Part shown: piece by piece, positions 4,431 through 61,781 of the stretch
Layout of the letters: every line of letters starts with the position of its first letter
How positions within the stretch are numbered: the stretch's first letter is position 1
Assembly: GCA_934167755.1 (NCBI GenBank)
Contig: CAKPLT010000006.1
Span: forward strand, 14,189-78,188
Source: an uncultured Clostridia bacterium
GTDB lineage: Bacteria; Bacillota; Clostridia; TANB77; CAG-508
DNA length: 64,000 bases
Direction of reading: 5' to 3'
Position numbers and translations under genes: made by a program
Notes under the pieces: generated by a model
What the model saw: the letters and a program-made list of their open reading frames with translations, nothing else
Databases searched by the model: none
Told to the model about the DNA's origin: nothing

Positions 4431-4484
4431 TTACCATTAGGAACACTCATTAATGGTAAACTTTTTTACCATTTGGGACACCCT
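4431..4484. repeat. Family-2-related element in the murE leader
   Basis: TTACCATTAGGAACACTCATTAATGGTAAACTTTTTTACCATTTGGGACACCC shares the GGGACAC / ACACTCATTAATGGTAA blocks with 17978-18048. Confidence 0.7.
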
Positions 4485-7374: not shown

Positions 7375-8268
7375 TCAATATTCATTGTCATTTCTAATAA
7401 ACCTTTGACCTGGCAATTCTATAATCTTGTCCTCTAATTGTAGCATCATAGTTTTATAATTAACTTCACTAATTGAAAGCCCAATATTTCTTGCTATTTG
7501 ATTTAAATCTTTAGGTTCATCTGTAATTTCTTTATATACATTTAGTAATTCAGGTGAAATATTAAAATACAAATTTTTTTGTTTTATTTCTTTTTTACGG
7601 AATATAATTTCTGGGTTAATCTTGCTAAGTTCTTCAATAATGTCTTCTGCATTTATAACCAATTTTGCGCCTTTCTGAATAAGTTCATTTGTTAATATGC
7701 CTTTTTTGTTTTCTAAACTACTTGGAACACAAAACACTGGCTTTTTACTTTGATTTGTAAATCTTGCTGTAACACTTGTTCCACTTCTATAACCAGCTTC
7801 TACAACTAATGTTCCAACACCTAATCCAGCAACAATTCTGTTTCTTTCAAGAAATTTATCTGAATCTGCTTGTATATTATTTTCATATTCTGATATAACT
7901 GCACCTCCATTTTTTATAATTTCCTCTATTAATATCTTATTTGTGAGTTTACAAATGTTTTTCAATCCTGAAGGCAAAACCGCAATGGTTTTTCCACTAT
8001 TTTTTAAACATTCTTCATGTGCAATACTGTCTATTCCAAATGCTAGACCACTAATAATATTTATTTTATATTCCTGTAACCCATTTACAAATTTTTTACA
8101 CATCTTTCTGCCATACTCTGTATTTGTACGAGAGCCTACAACAGCTATTCCAATTTCATTCAAAATTTCCACATTTCCTAAAACATATAATCTTGATGGT
8201 GGTTTTTCTATATTTCTTAACCTTTTTGGATATAATTCACTAAAATATTCAATTATAATTGGCTCCAT
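7375..8268 (-). CDS. dprA: DNA-processing protein DprA/Smf
   Basis: GIAVVGSRTNTEYGRK...ISGLAFGIDSIAHE...GTLVVEAGYRSGT is the Rossmann-like DprA core. TGA stop. Confidence 0.85.
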   Translation of the reverse strand: MEPIIIEYFSELYPKRLRNIEKPPSRLYVLGNVEILNEIGIAVVGSRTNTEYGRKMCKKFVNGLQEYKINIISGLAFGIDSIAHEECLKNSGKTIAVLPSGLKNICKLTNKILIEEIIKNGGAVISEYENNIQADSDKFLERNRIVAGLGVGTLVVEAGYRSGTSVTARFTNQSKKPVFCVPSSLENKKGILTNELIQKGAKLVINAEDIIEELSKINPEIIFRKKEIKQKNLYFNISPELLNVYKEITDEPKDLNQIARNIGLSISEVNYKTMMLQLEDKIIELPGQRFIRNDNEY

Positions 8269-15316: not shown

Positions 15317-15386
15317 ACTTTTTCTCCTTTTTACAATCTGCTTATATTATAGCACTTTTTAAAGAAAAAGCAAGAATACAATTTAT

Positions 15387-17977: not shown

Positions 17978-18048
17978 GAAGTTACCAGTGGGGACACTCA
18001 TTAATGGTAACTTTTTGACCAAATATGAGTGTCCCCACTGGTAACTTC
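17978..18048. repeat. Family-2 repeat: 71-bp palindrome (24-nt perfect arms)
   Basis: GAAGTTACCAGTGGGGACACTCAT (17978-18001) and ATGAGTGTCCCCACTGGTAACTTC (18025-18048). It abuts the stop codon of the 18048..19739 gene. Confidence 0.9.
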
Positions 18049-19751: not shown

Positions 19752-21461
19752 TTATAATTCAATTTTATTTTTATTCATTATATAATTTTTTATATTCATA
19801 TAATCTGATGGTGTTATATTTCCATCTTTATTAACATCTGCACTTGTTAAAGCAGCTCCATCTATCTTATTTCTATTCATTATATGATTTTTAACATGCA
19901 TATAATCTGATGGTGTTATTTCTCCATCACCATTAATATCTCCAAGCACAGAAATTATATAAATATCATTAACCTTATAACCTGTTGCAAGTTTACCATT
20001 TACTGATTCTCCTGATGCATTTTTCACAACAACATCATTTCCCATAAGAAATTTCAAATCATCAACTATTGCATTAGGAACAACAGTTATTGTATTTTTA
20101 GAATTATCAATCTTAACCTTATTATCTTTATTTGATGTATCAGGCTCACTTGGTGTATCTTGACTTACAGGCACCAAATATAATTTATAACCTGATTCAC
20201 CTTCTTTTGTTTCTCTAGCAGCATATCCTTTAGTACCGTCAGCCTTCATAACATAATCCCAGTAAGTACCACCTATTTTCTCTGTTGCTTTATTCAATCT
20301 AGTAATTATTTCATCTCTATAAACAATACCAACTTTATCACTAGATGTACCTGGTTCTGCCCTCAAAAATAATGTATTTGTAACATTAACCCTTACCAAA
20401 TCAGTAGTTGTTGGTATATTAGATGATGTTGTTGAAGGTCTTGGTGATGCAGTTTTAGGCATATTTTTATAAACAGGTATTATAAAAGTATAATTTGCAT
20501 CAGCTGAGCCAACACTTTCAAAAGTTTTTCTTAAAGTTTGCCCTTCATTCTGTGCAGCTAAAATATTTTGCATATATTGATGCCAATATAACTTGCCATC
20601 TGAGTTTTCAACATCAAATTTCTGAAAATACAATGTATTTTGTCCTTTAGAAATATAATCTTTAGCAATTATTTCAGTTCCTCCAGCAATTGATTTTTCC
20701 ATTGAATTCCATCCATATGATTGTGCTGATTTCAATCCATTTAAAATAATATTATCTTTTCCATTTCCACTTGCACCCATGTTGAACACATTATAATATC
20801 CAACATATTGACCATTATGACCTTTTCCACTAGATAAAGTAGAACCGTTTTTTCCTTGTTCTTGCAAAATTCTTGCTACTATGTAATATGCATTAACATT
20901 ATATTTTTTAGCCGAATCTATAATTGTATTTATGTAAGAATCATTATTCAAAAATGTTCCAGCTACCATTGCTCTTAATGTCTGAACATTGCAATCAGCA
21001 TCTGATAATTGCATAAATTGAAATATATCTGAATAATTTGTTGAGTTTCTTGGATCCATCATATATGCAAGAGCAGATTCTGATGCACAATGTAAACCAC
21101 TATCATATTTTTTATCACCACATATTTTGCAAATCCATTCACCAGTATATCTACTATCTGTTGAAGTAATTAAATTTCTTGGTTTAGCATTATGTCCTAC
21201 ATATTCATTTGCAATTGCCTCATTCCATTTAATATCAGTATATAAAATTTTGAAATTCCAATTTGGATGTTGGCTTTTTAAAGTTTGTAACATTTCTTTT
21301 ATTTGAGGGTATTGATTTGAATCAATTGAATTAATATCAGTAGACACTGTTTGATTTACTGCAAAAGCAGAAAATCTGTCATTTCCACTAATTATATTTA
21401 TAACTATATATGATATTATTAATATAAGAATGATTAATAACTTTTTTATAATCTTTTTCAT
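19752..21461 (-). CDS. Secreted GH73-type N-acetylglucosaminidase (autolysin) with SH3-like domain and C-terminal dockerin repeats
   Basis: Signal peptide; a glucosaminidase region (YYIVARILQEQG...YYNVFNMGA...LYFQKF); an SH3b-like segment (LFLRAEPGTSSDKVGIVYRDE). Two EF-hand-like dockerin repeats follow: GDINGDGEITPSDYMHVKNHIM and DVNKDGNITPSDYMNIKNYIM. Confidence 0.7.
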   Translation of the reverse strand: MKKIIKKLLIILILIISYIVINIISGNDRFSAFAVNQTVSTDINSIDSNQYPQIKEMLQTLKSQHPNWNFKILYTDIKWNEAIANEYVGHNAKPRNLITSTDSRYTGEWICKICGDKKYDSGLHCASESALAYMMDPRNSTNYSDIFQFMQLSDADCNVQTLRAMVAGTFLNNDSYINTIIDSAKKYNVNAYYIVARILQEQGKNGSTLSSGKGHNGQYVGYYNVFNMGASGNGKDNIILNGLKSAQSYGWNSMEKSIAGGTEIIAKDYISKGQNTLYFQKFDVENSDGKLYWHQYMQNILAAQNEGQTLRKTFESVGSADANYTFIIPVYKNMPKTASPRPSTTSSNIPTTTDLVRVNVTNTLFLRAEPGTSSDKVGIVYRDEIITRLNKATEKIGGTYWDYVMKADGTKGYAARETKEGESGYKLYLVPVSQDTPSEPDTSNKDNKVKIDNSKNTITVVPNAIVDDLKFLMGNDVVVKNASGESVNGKLATGYKVNDIYIISVLGDINGDGEITPSDYMHVKNHIMNRNKIDGAALTSADVNKDGNITPSDYMNIKNYIMNKNKIEL

Positions 21462-26219: not shown

Positions 26220-26286
26220 GGGAAATTATGTACCCGGTCCCAAATTGACCTTTGGGGGCAATTTGGGACCGGGTACATAATTTCCC
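26220..26286. repeat. Family-1 repeat, two inverted units forming a perfect 28-bp-stem palindrome upstream of dxs
   Basis: GGGAAATTATGTACCCGGTCCCAAATTG (26220-26247) and CAATTTGGGACCGGGTACATAATTTCCC (26259-26286), with an 11-nt loop and T/A runs on both sides. Confidence 0.9.
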
Positions 26287-33817: not shown

Positions 33818-33883
33818 GGGAAATTTTGTACCTGGTCCCAAATTTTCCCTAAATGGAAATTTAGGACCGGGTACATTTTTTCC
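33818..33883. repeat. Family-1 repeat, two inverted units in the der-plsY spacer
   Basis: GGGAAATTTTGTACCTGGTCCCAAATTTTCCC (33818-33849) faces GGAAATTTAGGACCGGGTACATTTTTTCC (33855-33883). Confidence 0.9.
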
Positions 33884-33886
33884 ATT

Positions 33887-35245: not shown

Positions 35246-35312
35246 TGGGGAAATTTAGGACCAGGTACATTTTTTCCATTAATGGGAAATTTAGGACCGG
35301 GTACATTTTTTC
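35246..35312. repeat. Family-1 repeat, two direct units upstream of der
   Basis: GGGGAAATTTAGGACCAGGTACATTTTTTCC (35246-35276) and GGGAAATTTAGGACCGGGTACATTTTTTCC (35283-35312). Confidence 0.9.
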
Positions 35313-35339
35313 CTTATTTTCATTTATATTTTACTATTT

Positions 35340-54184: not shown

Positions 54185-55420
54185 TTATTTCATCTTTTTT
54201 AGCAATATAGTTGCATTGTGTCCTCCAAATCCTAATGAATTTGACATTGCGTAATTTACTTCTACATTTCTACCTTTATTGGGAACAATATCCAAATCAC
54301 ATTCTTCATCAGGAACTTGGTAATTTATAGTTGGTGGAACAAAATCATCTTGAATTGATTTTGCACATATAACAGCTTCAATTCCACCGGCTGCACCAAG
54401 TAAATGCCCTGTATTACCTTTTGTTGAACTCATCATTACTGTTTTAGCAGCATCTCCAAAAGCTGTTTTTACAGCTTCTGTTTCTCCCGAATCATTAAGA
54501 TGTGTAGAAGTGCCATGTGCATTTATATATGTAATTTCTTCTGGTTTAACAACAGCTTCTTTCATTGCAATTTTCATTGCTCTTGCACCACCTTCGCCAC
54601 CAGGAGCAGGTGAAGTTATATGATAAGCATCTGAAGTTGCACCATAACCAACAACTTCAGCATAAATTTTTGCTCCTCTTGCCTTTGCGTGTTCAAGCTC
54701 TTCTAATACAATAATTCCTGCACCTTCTCCCATAACAAAACCGCTTCTTTCTTTATCAAATGGAATACTAGCTCTATTTTTATCAGTTATTTGAGTTAAT
54801 GCTTTTATGTTTGTAAATCCTGCAATACCTGATGGAGTAATAGAAGCTTCTGTTCCTCCAGCAATAATTACATCTTGATATCCATGTTTAATCATTCTAA
54901 AGCCTTCACCAATACAATGAGTACCACTAGCACAAGCAGTAACCATAGAAATTGATTCACCTTTTGCTCCAAGATCTATCGTCACATTTCCCGCAGCCAT
55001 ATTACCTATTGTCATTGGAATATACATTGGAGAAATTCTATCTGGACCTTTTTCAATCATCTTTTCTATATTTTTTTCAATATTTTCAAGTCCTCCTATA
55101 CCAGAACCAACTATAACTCCAACTCTAGTCATATTTTCCTTTTCTTTATCTAATCCACTGTCTTTCCAAGCCTCTCTTGATGCTACAATTGCAAAATGTG
55201 AAAATCTGTCCATTCTTTTTGCTTCTCTTTTATCTAAGTAATCTTCTGCATTAAACCCTTTCACCTCGCCTGCTAATTTTACTTTAAAATCACTTGTATC
55301 AAATCTTGTTATTTCATCAATTCCACATTTTCCTTCTTTGATTCCATTCCAAAATTCTTCCACATTATTTCCTATTGGAGTTATTGCTCCAAGTCCTGTT
55401 ATTACAACTCTTCTTTCCAT
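54185..55420 (-). CDS. fabF: 3-oxoacyl-ACP synthase II FabF
   Basis: MERRVVITGLGAITPIG..., ACASGTH, HGTST, GHLLGAAG. The upstream 36 codons in the track ORF are a translated repeat (EKMYPVQN twice), so I start the gene at ATG 55420. Confidence 0.95.
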   Translation of the reverse strand: MERRVVITGLGAITPIGNNVEEFWNGIKEGKCGIDEITRFDTSDFKVKLAGEVKGFNAEDYLDKREAKRMDRFSHFAIVASREAWKDSGLDKEKENMTRVGVIVGSGIGGLENIEKNIEKMIEKGPDRISPMYIPMTIGNMAAGNVTIDLGAKGESISMVTACASGTHCIGEGFRMIKHGYQDVIIAGGTEASITPSGIAGFTNIKALTQITDKNRASIPFDKERSGFVMGEGAGIIVLEELEHAKARGAKIYAEVVGYGATSDAYHITSPAPGGEGGARAMKIAMKEAVVKPEEITYINAHGTSTHLNDSGETEAVKTAFGDAAKTVMMSSTKGNTGHLLGAAGGIEAVICAKSIQDDFVPPTINYQVPDEECDLDIVPNKGRNVEVNYAMSNSLGFGGHNATILLKKMK

Positions 55421-55436
55421 TTCAATTTCCTTTCTT

Positions 55437-55510
55437 GGTAAATTTTGTACCGGGTACATTTTTTCCCTTTTGGTTTTAGGAAAATTTTGTACCGGGTACA
55501 TTTTTTCTCT
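55437..55510. repeat. Family-1 repeat, two direct units (cores TGTACCGGGTACA at 55446-55458 and 55488-55500) in the fabG-fabF spacer
   Basis: The units are GGTAAATTTTGTACCGGGTACATTTTTTCCC and AGGAAAATTTTGTACCGGGTACATTTTTTCTC. The cores are perfect 13-bp palindromes 42 bp apart. Confidence 0.9.
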
Positions 55511-56249
55511 AGCATACCATTCCTCCATCTATGTTAATAACTTGCCCTGTAATATATGAACTTTCTTCACTTCCTAAAAAATAAACCACATTAGCAATTT
55601 CTCTTGCAGTTCCCATTCTTTTCATAGGAATTTGAACATTTATATTTGCTTTCACATCATCTGATAATATACTTGTCATGTCAGTATCAATAAATCCTGG
55701 TGCAACTGCATTTGCTCTAATGTTCCTTGATGCCAATTCTTTTGCAATACTTTTCGTAAATCCTATTATTCCTGCTTTAGATGCTGAATAATTAGATTGA
55801 CCTGCATTTCCTGTTACACCTACAACTGATGATAAATTTATAATTCTTCCATTTCTTTTTTTCATCATATATGGTGTTACTGCTTTTGTCACTAAAAAAG
55901 TTCCTTTCAAATTGGTTTCTATTACTTTATCAAAATCTTCTTCTTTCATTCTCATTAACAATGTATCTCTTGTTATCCCTGCATTATTTACTAATACATC
56001 AATTTTTCCAAATTTCTCGATTGTTTGTTTCACGACATTTTCTACTTCTTCTGTTTTGGATACATCGGCTTTCACAACCAAGCTTTCTACTCCATATCTA
56101 TTAAAATCTTTTTTCAGTTCATCTATATCTGTTTTTTCTGATACATAATTAATTACTATATTATATCCATTCTCTGCATATTTTAAAGCAATTTCTTTTC
56201 CTATTCCTCTTGACCCACCTGTTACAAAAACCACTTGTTTTTCTTCCAT
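55509..56249 (-). CDS. fabG: 3-oxoacyl-ACP reductase FabG
   Basis: VTGGSRGIG, NNAGIT, the YSASKAG catalytic triad context, and INIDGG. Confidence 0.95.
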   Translation of the reverse strand: MEEKQVVFVTGGSRGIGKEIALKYAENGYNIVINYVSEKTDIDELKKDFNRYGVESLVVKADVSKTEEVENVVKQTIEKFGKIDVLVNNAGITRDTLLMRMKEEDFDKVIETNLKGTFLVTKAVTPYMMKKRNGRIINLSSVVGVTGNAGQSNYSASKAGIIGFTKSIAKELASRNIRANAVAPGFIDTDMTSILSDDVKANINVQIPMKRMGTAREIANVVYFLGSEESSYITGQVINIDGGMVC

Positions 56250-57233: not shown

Positions 57234-57430
57234 ATTGTTCTCCTTTTTATATTTTTTAAATTATTTCATTTATATACCTTTTATCTTAATCTTTCTATTA
57301 GTATGACTGGTCAAAATAGTCTTTGGCACAAAAAAGACATCACCATTAATTTTATTAGTAATGTCCTGTTTTAGTATTTTGCATTTTATTGTTCTATTAT
57401 TTTCATAAATTATTTAATATCATATATTTA

Positions 57431-58351: not shown

Positions 58352-58541
58352 ATATCATACACTCCCATCTATAATTTATCCTATAATTCTTTGAAATTAT
58401 AACATTATCTTTTTGGTTTTGGCAATTCATTATAACAAGCAGTCAGTAACAGCTAAAAATTATGTATCTTGTTCATTTTTTCTATCATACTATTTACAAA
58501 TCTTCCAATATAAGTTAAAATAATGACTGGAGGAAATAATT

Positions 58542-59000
58542 ATGAAAACTTACAAATTCATTTCACACAATAGTAACGAAACAATGGAATTTGCTTCTAA
58601 ATTAGCAAGCAAATTACATATTGGTGATGTTGTTGTTTTATCAGGTGAACTAGGTTCTGGAAAAACTAAATTTACTGAGGGTTTTTTAAAATACTTTGGT
58701 CTTGACAAAGAAATTTCAAGCCCAACATTTAATATTGTTAACGAATATAAAAAAGATGATATAAAAATTTATCATTTTGATGTTTATAGATTAGAAGATA
58801 TTGACGAATTTTATGCTATTGGTGGAGAAGAATATTTTTCTTCTGGTATCTGTATTATAGAATGGGGTGAACTTATTGAAGAAGCTCTTCCTAATGATTA
58901 TATAAAAATATCTTTTGAAAAGGATTTAAATGATGAACATATAAGATATTTAATTGTTACCAGTAGGGAGGCTCTTCTTACCAATAGGGACACTCATTAG
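58542..59000 (+). CDS. tsaE: tRNA t6A37 biosynthesis ATPase TsaE
   Basis: LSGELGSGKT Walker A, SPTFNIVNEY, HFDVYRL. The last 14 codons are encoded by an intergenic-type repeat. Confidence 0.85.
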   Translation: MKTYKFISHNSNETMEFASKLASKLHIGDVVVLSGELGSGKTKFTEGFLKYFGLDKEISSPTFNIVNEYKKDDIKIYHFDVYRLEDIDEFYAIGGEEYFSSGICIIEWGELIEEALPNDYIKISFEKDLNDEHIRYLIVTSREALLTNRDTH

Positions 59001-59041
59001 TGGTCAAAAAAGTTACCAGTGGTGACACCCATATTGGTAAC
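58956..59041. repeat. Family-2 repeat, two units spanning the 3' end of tsaE and its terminator
   Basis: The units are GTTACCAGTAGGGAGGCTCTTCTTACCAATAGGGACACTCATTAGTGGTC and GTTACCAGTGGTGACACCCATATTGGTAAC, the latter followed by TTTTTATAATTTT. Confidence 0.85.
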
Positions 59042-59052
59042 TTTTTATAATT

Positions 59053-59849: not shown

Positions 59850-59880
59850 GGGAAATTTTGTACCCGGTACGTTTTTTCCC
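59850..59880. repeat. Family-1 repeat, single unit in the accA-fabI spacer
   Basis: GGGAAATTTTGTACCCGGTACGTTTTTTCCC, read directly. Confidence 0.9.
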
Positions 59881-60688: not shown

Positions 60689-60714
60689 TTATTTCAACTC
60701 CTCTTTTTACTTCT

Positions 60715-60777
60715 GAAAATTGTGTACCCGGTCCTTAATTAATTTAAAAAGGATAATTATGTACCCGGTCCTCAATT
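60715..60777. repeat. Family-1 repeat, two direct units (core TGTACCCGGTCC at 60723-60734 and 60760-60771) in the accD-accA spacer
   Basis: The units are GAAAATTGTGTACCCGGTCCTTAATT and GGATAATTATGTACCCGGTCCTCAATT, with cores 37 bp apart. Confidence 0.85.
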
Positions 60778-60784
60778 ACACTTT

Positions 60785-61630: not shown

Positions 61631-61734
61631 CTTCTTATTTCCTCCTGTCAAACTTATATCATCATAAATTTGATATTTTGTATTATATATTTAACAAAGC
61701 TCTTTTTCAATTAGACTGAATAGTCAAGATAGTC

Positions 61735-61781
61735 AAAAAAAAAAAAAATTGATGTAGAAAACTATATAAGTCTTCTACATC
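61735..61781 (-). terminator. Rho-independent terminator of pyk
   Basis: GATGTAGAA/TTCTACATC stem (61751-61759 and 61773-61781), followed on the minus strand by 14 T (plus-strand A14 at 61735-61748). Confidence 0.75.

Follow-up and report, generated by a model that had tools for sequence, protein, structure and literature searches.

Within a 64-kb stretch of DNA from an uncultured Clostridia bacterium (contig CAKPLT010000006.1; the whole stretch is called the window below), the spacer between fabG and fabF (55421-55508) holds a pair of near-identical 31-nt units, found on inspection of the sequence, whose perfectly palindromic 13-bp cores, TGTACCGGGTACA, start at 55445 and 55487. In this article, I will argue that these units and their copies elsewhere in the window are very probably REP-type (repetitive extragenic palindromic) repeats belonging to a RAYT/TIRYT system (RAYT, REP-associated tyrosine transposase) of uncultured gut Clostridia, and not operators of lipid genes. 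A preliminary description of this spacer had quoted the units and the 42-bp spacing of their cores exactly as they are seen here, and had rightly brought one unit up against fabG, whose stop codon (55509-55511) has its final base within the second unit. The first unit ends 16 nt from the fabF ATG (55420), and the reading of 42 bp as four helical turns has nothing behind it beyond the number itself, tandem spacings in relatives being 31-45 bp. An identical FabG protein occurs in contigs of human gut metagenomes, those of the Hadza among them.

Searching the window, which has a G+C content of 27.8%, with TGTACCNGGTMC and at most one mismatch returned 19 strand-matches where 0.13 were expected and where shuffling gave a maximum of 2. 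The exact matches resolve into 11 units at six loci (GTACC cores starting at 26230, 26266, 33828, 33864, 35258, 35294, 55447, 55489, 59860, 60724 and 60761), in agreement with the coordinates listed earlier, and a repeat finder sorts the units into families D1, D3 and D4. All six loci are, as had been described, short spacers with co-directional minus-strand open reading frames (ORFs) on either side, and NCBIfam bears out the gene names dxs, plsY, der, fabF, fabG, fabI, accA and accD. The canonical unit of 31 nt reads GGG(A/C)(A/C)A - W3-4 - TGTACC-S-GGTACA - W3-4 - T(G/T)(G/T)CCC and, since both W-tracts are usually like-stranded runs of T or of A, the nested palindrome is asymmetric and has an orientation. 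Units occur as singletons, direct tandems and inverted doublets, nearly all of them in short intergenic spacers; the doublets make up two of the six window loci, and the remaining loci, together with most loci of the related genome CAKPDR01 discussed below, are singletons or direct tandems. A single unit is predicted to fold into a hairpin of -10 to -11 kcal/mol, and Rfam 15, run at gathering thresholds over the whole window, gave zero matches.

The centre of the units varies little. When units were searched for by their arms only, the core was perfect in 75, matched at 11 of 12 positions in 3 and at 10 of 12 in 6, against a background of no more than 8 of 12, and this conservation far exceeds the neutral expectation at the ~10% divergence between species. 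Seven or eight of the 11 window units belong to a subfamily in which GGTAC is replaced by GGTCC, and which is not self-palindromic, and the change is identical in all window units of that subfamily; near-perfect cores and this common change together indicate that the copies evolve in concert.

Distribution, turnover and orientation of the units

The pattern GGAAAWWWTGTACCNGGTMC was scanned over one genome per species (GTDB), 596 Gb in all, and gave 79 stretches: 28 are 8-kb tiles of CAKPDR01, a metagenome-assembled genome (MAG) labeled 'uncultured Clostridia bacterium', 5 are in CAKPGU01, and the remaining 46 are single matches in unrelated taxa, which I estimate to be background as the pattern carries ~34 bits and would find ~70 chance matches in 596 Gb. 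CAKPDR01, which at ~90% identity is the public genome closest to the window, is 85-94% identical to it over four overlapping stretches and CAKPGU01 is 87-94% identical to CAKPDR01, so that the clustering of matches in two close MAGs, with background singletons elsewhere, marks the family as specific to a narrow lineage. A scan of viral contigs gave 5 single matches only and thus no link to phages.

The 28 tiles of CAKPDR01 (~216 kb) contain at least 55 units, distributed over 38 spacers, 54 of the 55 being intergenic, and about 50 flanking ORFs were annotated by Pfam. Ten units are spread across four consecutive spacers of a HydABC-type [FeFe] hydrogenase operon, and others neighbor genes for a P-type ATPase, MinC, a sigma factor and methionine gamma-lyase; three RluA-type pseudouridine synthases, FtsH, an SPFH protein and Obg; RuvB, a MATE/flippase protein, GAPDH-PGK and Asd; RmlC/RmlB, a histidine kinase with its response regulator, and GatA; ClpC, a GH15 enzyme, RNase J, phosphoglucomutase, UDP-glucose pyrophosphorylase and QueH; and SpoIIIAA, SpoIIIAF, YunB, SipL and a PMT-type glycosyltransferase. 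The only lipid-linked sites are orthologues of the window loci (fabF, fabI, accA, plsY and der), which leaves about 33 of the 38 occupied spacers with no lipid connection, and units are also found where genes converge and, in one case, within a coding sequence. The preliminary description had proposed an operator set for a membrane-lipid regulon, a proposal that does not survive this scatter across unrelated intergenic regions, and its count of six lipid-linked loci out of six is weaker than it looks when three of those loci lie in one fab cluster and two in the der-plsY cluster.

Comparison of orthologous spacers shows that the units come and go as wholes. The fabG-fabF spacer of the window contains two units and that of CAKPDR01 (tile L063) a single one, the two spacers differing by a clean 42-bp indel such that the copy at 55437-55467 is absent from L063 and the copy at 55479-55509 is the orthologue of its single unit; the spacer between an M50 peptidase gene and der has two units versus one, with a 44-bp indel; and the accD-accA spacer again has two versus one. 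The reverse is seen in the sigma factor-methionine gamma-lyase spacer, where the window has none (15317-15386) and CAKPDR01 has one, and no target-site duplication is evident at this pair of occupied (L034) and empty sites. Between CAKPDR01 and CAKPGU01, too, the number of units at common sites varies, for example three versus one downstream of ruvB, and within the species of the window the spacers are identical across 10 metagenome contigs. Taken together, the alignments across and within species indicate that the sites are old and mostly inherited and that units are gained or lost whole. Conservation of the palindrome in related species had been named as a check in the preliminary description; the three fab spacers are occupied in the relative too, and sites differ between relatives by whole units. 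In more distant relatives, the matching spacers carry other cores (GGGACCGGGTA, GAACCGTCCCC) with the position kept.

The units are also strongly biased in orientation. Read on the mRNA strand, 44 units in co-directional spacers are of the A/A form in 35 cases, T/T in 5 and A/T in 4, and the excess of A/A over T/T has a binomial p of ~1e-6 (24 versus 3 when counted by locus). As RNA, the T/T form would be a hairpin followed by U6 and resembles a terminator, whereas the A/A form does not; in a test for intrinsic terminators, 35 of the 44 operon-spacer units carry A-tracts past the hairpin and only the 5 T/T and 4 A/T units are terminator-like, a few of the A/T type resembling bidirectional terminators, and a terminator scan flagged just the antisense strand at 55434-55454. 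The bias may reflect selection against termination within operons, and it could equally reflect single-strand insertion coupled to replication. The strand of the genes and the GC skew are confounded in all tiles and gave no separation of replication-linked from transcription-linked orientation; the five exceptions sit on majority-strand genes. Action of the units at the RNA level is compatible with the strong strand bias in operon spacers.

The HUH/Y1 gene beside the repeats

A motif screen of 332 ORFs for HUH with a downstream tyrosine returned one candidate, on contig CAKPDR010000004.1, where positions 7624-7998 of tile L021 match Pfam Y1_Tnp with an E-value of 7e-14 and the ORF runs on into the adjacent tile L088 (1-397; ...RNPE-N-AGISLTQKYEWSSY...) to give a product of 257 aa. 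The residues H60-V-H62 and Y119-V-H-R-N123-P124 are invariant among 31 homologues, the Y---NP motif being characteristic of class 2 (TnpA-REP-like) proteins (PMC6006769). Among NCBIfam families the best match is NF047646, 'REP-associated tyrosine transposase', at 56.6 bits (17 bits for IS200), and one database source labels a homologue 'REP element-mobilizing transposase RayT'. Searched against the PDB by sequence, the 257-aa protein gave zero matches; the AlphaFold model (predicted local distance difference test, pLDDT, 81.6) has as its best Foldseek match 4ER8_A, a structure of the E. coli RAYT in complex with a REP hairpin (E 2.2e-6, TM 0.70 on the target), followed by the IS608, ISDra2 and IS200 transposases, and it places residues ~130-257 in an all-helical C-terminal extension.

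The surroundings of this gene were compared between CAKPDR01 (100%) and homologues at 90, 89, 88, 83, 77, 68, 61 and 56% identity. At all nine identity levels there is one Y1_Tnp gene (257-262 aa), located between the hydABC operon and yunB-sipL-spoVG, and at nine out of nine it is bordered by the abundant intergenic repeat variant of its own genome. In CAKPDR01, two units begin 3 nt past the stop codon of the Y1 gene, and the 16 kb around it (L021 and L088) contain 15 of the 55 units, ten of them in the hydABC operon spacers, a density ~5x higher than that of the 26 remaining tiles with repeats (40 units). At 90% identity (L095/L096), the 3' flank carries two copies of GGGACATTTTGTACCCGGTACATTTTTTCCC, with 8 copies per 13.9 kb in L095; at 88-89% (L104/L105), the repeats are of the GGGGACAGGTAC, GAACCAGGTAC and GAACCGTCCCC types, 8 per 20.8 kb; at 83% (L097/L098), the repeat is GGGGACCGGGTACATTTTTTAC, with 17-18 per 20 kb; and at 77% (L099), two copies of AAAAAGAACCGTCCCCTTTTT are found in addition to GGGACAGGTCC, with at least 13-20 per 20 kb. 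Further away, units of GGGGTCGGTTC lie on both sides of the gene at 68% (L101; 15 per 16.8 kb), three copies of ATTTGGGACCGGGTATTTTTTG lie upstream and their reverse complements downstream at 61% (L102; 22 per 12 kb), and the same layout recurs with CATTTGGGACCGGTTCT at 56% (L103; 15 per 16.8 kb). In these three most distant relatives the repeats flank the Y1 gene on both sides, inverted and facing inward, and a Y1 gene framed by inverted clusters of its cognate repeat is the REPtron/TIRtron arrangement. In L102 and L103, the Y1 gene is in addition inverted in place with the order of the neighboring genes kept, which is consistent with recombination between the flanking inverted repeat clusters.

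The repeats themselves form a series. The motif GGGGWSAS, known as the TIR motif of the TIRYT/TIRtron systems (Di Nocera et al., 2013; PMC3733652), is represented by an exact GGGGACAG at the 3' flank in L104/L105 and by the near-matches GGGGACGG and GGGGTCGG in L099 and L101, whereas L097, L102 and L103 have GGGACCGG in its place, and the window and CAKPDR01 have TGTACCGG. The cores thus drift across the relatives from GGGGWSAS-like through GGGACCGGGTA to the self-palindromic TGTACCSGGTACA, which makes the resemblance of the window units to a FapR box a late, lineage-specific accident.

Competing explanations and known systems

The analysis shows the dispersal of the units, their unit-wise turnover, the concerted evolution of their cores, their orientation bias and the adjacency of a RAYT-like gene in all sampled relatives. 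In the reading I prefer, the Y1 protein would recognize the folded single-stranded unit and would cut and rejoin it, as the E. coli TnpA-REP does with REPs, and this cutting and rejoining would spread and homogenize the copies, slippage being an added route by which tandems could be gained and lost. Copies would survive only where they are harmless, and operon spacers would for this reason keep the form with an A-tract on the mRNA, avoiding a hairpin with a U-run behind it. The fab, der-plsY and dxs spacers would then be permissive landing sites dating from the common ancestor of these species, and the lipid genes, if affected at all, would be affected incidentally, through RNA hairpins that alter stability, processing or the choice of translation start, and not by control of a regulon. 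I infer that the Y1 protein mobilizes the units, on the indirect evidence of unit-sized presence or absence and concerted change of the core between species, and that the window's own genome carries the gene. The alternative of a REP-like element, raised in the preliminary description, is in this way upheld and can be specified as a RAYT/TIRYT-associated repeat family.

Several observations weigh against this assignment to a RAYT/TIRYT system. The Y1 gene lies outside the window and is seen only in eight related species or strains, the closest of which have units only on its 3' side, and the adjacency of repeat and transposase is syntenic and so represents largely one inherited event rather than eight independent ones, to which the in-place inversion and the two-sided inverted clusters of L101-L103 add partial independence. 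No new insertion was seen within the species of the window across 10 metagenome contigs. The score of the 257-aa protein is below the NCBIfam RAYT cut-off of 80 bits, and no Pfam domain was detected in its C-terminal half when helix-turn-helix (HTH) or DnaA-like matches were sought at E<=1. The outer arms covary weakly (C-G at pair 5-27 occurs 8 times where ~4 are expected), which leaves hairpin formation without strong demonstration; mixed combinations of arms recur, such as GGGCAA...TGTCCC, and look like the copying of subfamilies rather than selection for pairing. Canonical REPs have a conserved 5' GT[AG]G at the foot of the hairpin (PMC3733652; PMC6006769), and the window-type units lack this tag (or CGTC), their ends being GGG(A/C)(A/C)A...T(G/T)(G/T)CCC with no GTAG, GTGG or CTAC at either end among 65 aligned units. 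Finally, no REP-like sequences have been reported near TnpA-Y1 subclass 2.1 genes (PMC6006769), and highly abundant flanking 16-mers were found in RAYT Groups 2 and 3 only, Group 1 having a weak association (PMC5581495), so the density found here is somewhat unexpected for proteins of this kind.

The rival explanations fare worse. That the units are operators through which FapR or another repressor co-regulates membrane-lipid genes is hardly credible, for all that the GTACC-N-GGTAC core coincides with the center of the FapR box TTAGTACCAGATACTAA (PMC5028935), that a fapR promoter variant reads TTAGTACCTAGTCTTAA (PMC12281612), that all six window loci precede lipid-linked genes and that the three fab spacers are occupied in the relative as well. 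The likeness noted in the preliminary description is real in its GTACC-N-G(G/A)TAC center but extends to only ~11-12 of 17 positions of TTAGTACCAGATACTAA. FapR boxes number about six per genome (PMC5052256), are 17 bp long with TTA/TAA flanks and lie within or just downstream of promoters, whereas the units here are 31 nt long with W-tracts in place of those flanks, occur genome-wide and within operons, at convergent ends and once in coding sequence, mostly (~33 of 38 spacers in the relative) at genes unrelated to lipids, and vary in number at orthologous sites. The window loci are not independent of each other, and with different cores in the spacers of distant relatives a fixed operator is not conserved. 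For the fab operons, the best promoter-like sites were located upstream of accD (61710-61682, with a terminator before it) and of fabH (58425-58396); neither region has a unit, the units being confined to internal operon spacers; no fapR candidate was found among the window genes examined, a genome-wide search not having been made. A FapR-like palindrome in fab, pls and dxs spacers is thus a tempting false positive and no signal of a lipid regulon, and these repeats must be masked before regulons are reconstructed from motifs in such genomes. An RNA-level role as host elements in their own right (stabilizers or segmenters of mRNA, RNase III or RNase Y sites, terminators or attenuators), with the transposase link secondary, is unlikely; in its favor are the 35:5 strand bias in operon spacers, the stable hairpins, above all those of inverted doublets (-60 kcal/mol), a core better kept than neutral divergence of ~10% permits, the few A/T-type units that look like bidirectional terminators, the closeness of units, by a few nt, to stop and start codons, and the effects of E. 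coli REPs on mRNA stability and termination (cited in PMC6006769). It has to contend with the lack of any Rfam match in the window, with weak stem covariation and recurring mismatched arms that point to subfamily copying, with whole units that come and go at the same spacer between close species, and with the wholesale replacement of cores at kept positions, which is hard to fit with a sequence-specific RNA partner; moreover, replication-coupled single-strand transposition would be expected to produce such a strand bias just as well, as genes and GC skew are co-oriented.

Passive tandem repeats, driven by slippage or decaying, with no enzyme and persisting by chance or gene conversion, would account for the facts that most differences between species are changes of copy number in existing arrays, that zero polymorphism was seen within the species of the window and that most of the compared sites are common by descent to three species. 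Slippage cannot, however, seed some 40 or more unlinked spacers or the L034 unit that is missing in the window, and near-perfect cores, the switching of whole genomes from one variant to another in concert and the consistent adjacency to, and enrichment around, a RAYT-like gene all make this explanation distinctly improbable. Sites for chromosome-organizing or nucleoid proteins of the Noc, ParB or SlmA type are short and tolerated inside genes. Units of 31 nt that are almost strictly intergenic (54 of 55), that form tandem arrays and inverted doublets and whose sequence is not conserved between related species fit such a role so poorly, with no such protein identified, that I give it next to no weight, even though a copy number of the order of 100 palindromic sites would suit it and the arms GGGAAAT/ATTTCCC resemble the two halves of the Noc site of B. 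subtilis, ATTTCCCGGGAAAT. Length, spacing and distribution spoke against CRISPR and type III toxin-antitoxin repeats and against cre, CodY, parS and Noc sites.

Among described systems, the REP/REPIN-RAYT 'REPtron' of E. coli and Pseudomonas, reportedly the work of Nunvar in 2010 and of Ton-Hoang and Messing in 2012 (the last with PDB entry 4ER8), is alike in many ways. Both have short imperfect palindromes outside genes (~31 nt here, 20-40 nt and tens to hundreds of copies per genome in REP systems), which occur singly, in clusters or as inverted doublets that form long hairpins; a variant proper to each species; a single, vertically inherited and syntenic HUH/Y1 gene bordered by cognate repeats; the class-2 Y---NP signature, with 4ER8 as the best structural match; and occasional in-frame copies in genes. 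The pairing of REP, BIME and REPIN sequences with the RAYT (TnpA-REP) transposase is laid out in Bertels and Rainey (2011; PMC3116915). The system described here differs in lacking the 5' tag, in its low-GC clostridial rather than proteobacterial host, in a protein that is ~100 residues longer, with a helical C-terminal half and a sub-threshold RAYT score, in direct tandems as common as inverted doublets, the latter being the replicating unit in REPIN systems, and in the one-sided border of the Y1 gene in the closest relatives; it works like REP/REPIN-RAYT, and it fails strict membership of the canonical REPs on the missing GT[AG]G.

The closest described category is the TIRYT/TIRtron, corresponding to TnpA-Y1 subclass 2.1 (Quentin et al., 2018; PMC6006769) and RAYT Group 1 (Bertels et al., 2017; PMC5581495), the subclass being a candidate only as no C-terminal domain is identifiable. 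Here too a RAYT-like protein has a C-terminal extension, its gene is flanked by inverted repeats that are not of the GTAG type, the dispersed families occur as dimers and clusters, and the flanks in some relatives have the GGGGWSAS-type motifs given above; Group 1 has moreover been reported in Clostridia (PMC5581495), and TIR families are sometimes 'moderately abundant' (PMC3733652). What differs is the density of up to 15-22 copies per 12-17 kb around the Y1 gene, the drift of the motif in the window lineage to the self-palindromic TGTACC-S-GGTACA, and, where TIRYTs have C-terminal HTH types (Bac_DnaA_C, HTH_23 or HTH_28), a helical extension that may be of this kind but gave no Pfam match at E<=1. 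It is possible, and I put it forward tentatively, that this is an unusually dense, undescribed system of the REPIN/RAYT type, with a single, syntenic transposase that is long and C-terminally extended, in a clade of uncultured low-GC, spore-forming gut Clostridia. The pair adds a dense, fast-evolving repeat and transposase of gut Clostridia to a field built almost wholly on Proteobacteria and connects the long RAYT-like proteins, a poorly understood group, with a specific population of repeats; the tentative reading, if true, would offer a Firmicutes model for REPIN-RAYT co-evolution and a natural series in which to study how transposases re-specify their DNA targets and whether replication or transcription sets orientation.

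Two further families of short repeats invite comparison. Rickettsia palindromic elements (RPE) are ~100-150 bp long and mostly intragenic, occasionally being inserted in frame into genes, and mycobacterial MIRUs are tandem repeats of 40-100 bp with coding constraints that occupy intercistronic spacers of operons in a preferred orientation. The units resemble MIRUs in being short repeats tolerated in operon spacers with a preferred orientation, and RPE in an in-frame genic insertion, that of the AddA-type gene of L051; they have no sequence relationship to either, and their tandem periods are not multiples of three. A coding constraint on the tandems, suggested by the 42-bp in-frame period at fabF, was dropped on the same periods in relatives (31-45 bp, not multiples of three). 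The AddA-type case in CAKPDR01 (L051, 2150-2180) is a unit in frame within a helicase-nuclease ORF, translated as KEKMYPVQNFP, that occupies the linker between the UvrD_C and PD-(D/E)XK domains; the close homologue P0001 has DKMYSVQNFP there, and the length of the linker is hypervariable in other homologues. It resembles the REPs reported inside repair genes (PMC3733652).

Coordinates and side observations

Table 1. Repeat units and an empty site in the window, with strand and distinguishing features.
Feature	Position	Strand	Remarks
REP-type unit GGTAAATTTTGTACCGGGTACATTTTTTCCC, fabG-fabF spacer	55437-55467	-	Self-palindromic core TGTACCGGGTACA; mRNA strand is GGGAAAAAATGTACCCGGTACAAAATTTACC, A/A form
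REP-type unit (A)GGAAAATTTTGTACCGGGTACATTTTTTCTC, fabG-fabF spacer	55479-55509 (55478 including leading A)	-	A/A form on mRNA strand
Single REP-type unit, accA-fabI spacer	59850-59880	-	Minus-strand core CGTACCGGGTACA; conserved in L035
Degenerate GGTCC-subfamily unit (TGTACCCGGTCCT), accD-accA spacer	60714-60744	+	Decayed arms
Second GGTCC-subfamily unit, accD-accA spacer	60751-60781	+	Direct tandem, 37 bp from first
GGTCC-subfamily unit, spacer between M50-type peptidase gene and der	35248-35278	-	Extra copy compared with L030
GGTCC-subfamily unit, M50-der spacer	35284-35314	-	Orthologue of the lone GTACC-type unit at L030 6989
Inverted doublet, REPIN-like, two GGTCC-subfamily units, der-plsY spacer	33818-33884	.	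Single long hairpin, -32.4 kcal/mol, z -4.7
Inverted doublet, REPIN-like, M23 peptidase-dxs spacer	26220-26286	.	Near-perfect ~38-bp hairpin, -60 kcal/mol, z -13.4
Empty site, sigma-factor to methionine gamma-lyase spacer	15317-15386	.	One unit in MAG CAKPDR01 (L034 853-883)

The units also disturb gene calling. Each of them, in mRNA orientation, contains GGGAAAAAATG, in which a Shine-Dalgarno-like run (GGGAAA) is followed by ATG, and for this reason fabF is called 13-36 codons too long by ORF finders and on public contigs, with public calls of 424 or 447 aa instead of 411 (window 54185-55528; L001-L010). The N-terminal extension of the fabF ORF at 54185-55528 is, as the preliminary description had it, the repeat in translation (EKMYPVQNF).

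Other palindromes and repeats of the window are distinct from the units. The promoter-proximal regions of the fab operons contain short palindromes, GACT-N4-AGTC ahead of accD and TGAC-N2-GTCA between fabH and fabD, in a spacer of 197 nt with no called gene (window 61700-61740, 57300-57320 and 58440-58460); they are unrelated to the units and are possible regulator sites, with inconsistent spacings, on which account the idea of a palindrome common to the fab promoter regions was set aside. A direct repeat of 84 nt (19759-19944; 83% identical, 102 nt apart), inside a 569-aa ORF at 19752-21461, is an internal protein repeat and likewise unrelated. A second dispersed palindromic family is found in the window at 4431-4484, 17981-18041 and 58978-59045, and also at L063 6430/6715, L073 3187, L087 38 and L084 2319; its member at 17981-18041 is an inverted doublet, GTTACCAGTGGGGACACTCATTAATGGTAAC...ATGAGTGTCCCCACTGGTAAC, with a core GGGGACAC that fits the GGGGWSAS motif of TIRYT-flanking repeats, and these repeats could form a sister REP/TIR family that belongs either to the same Y1 transposase or to another one.

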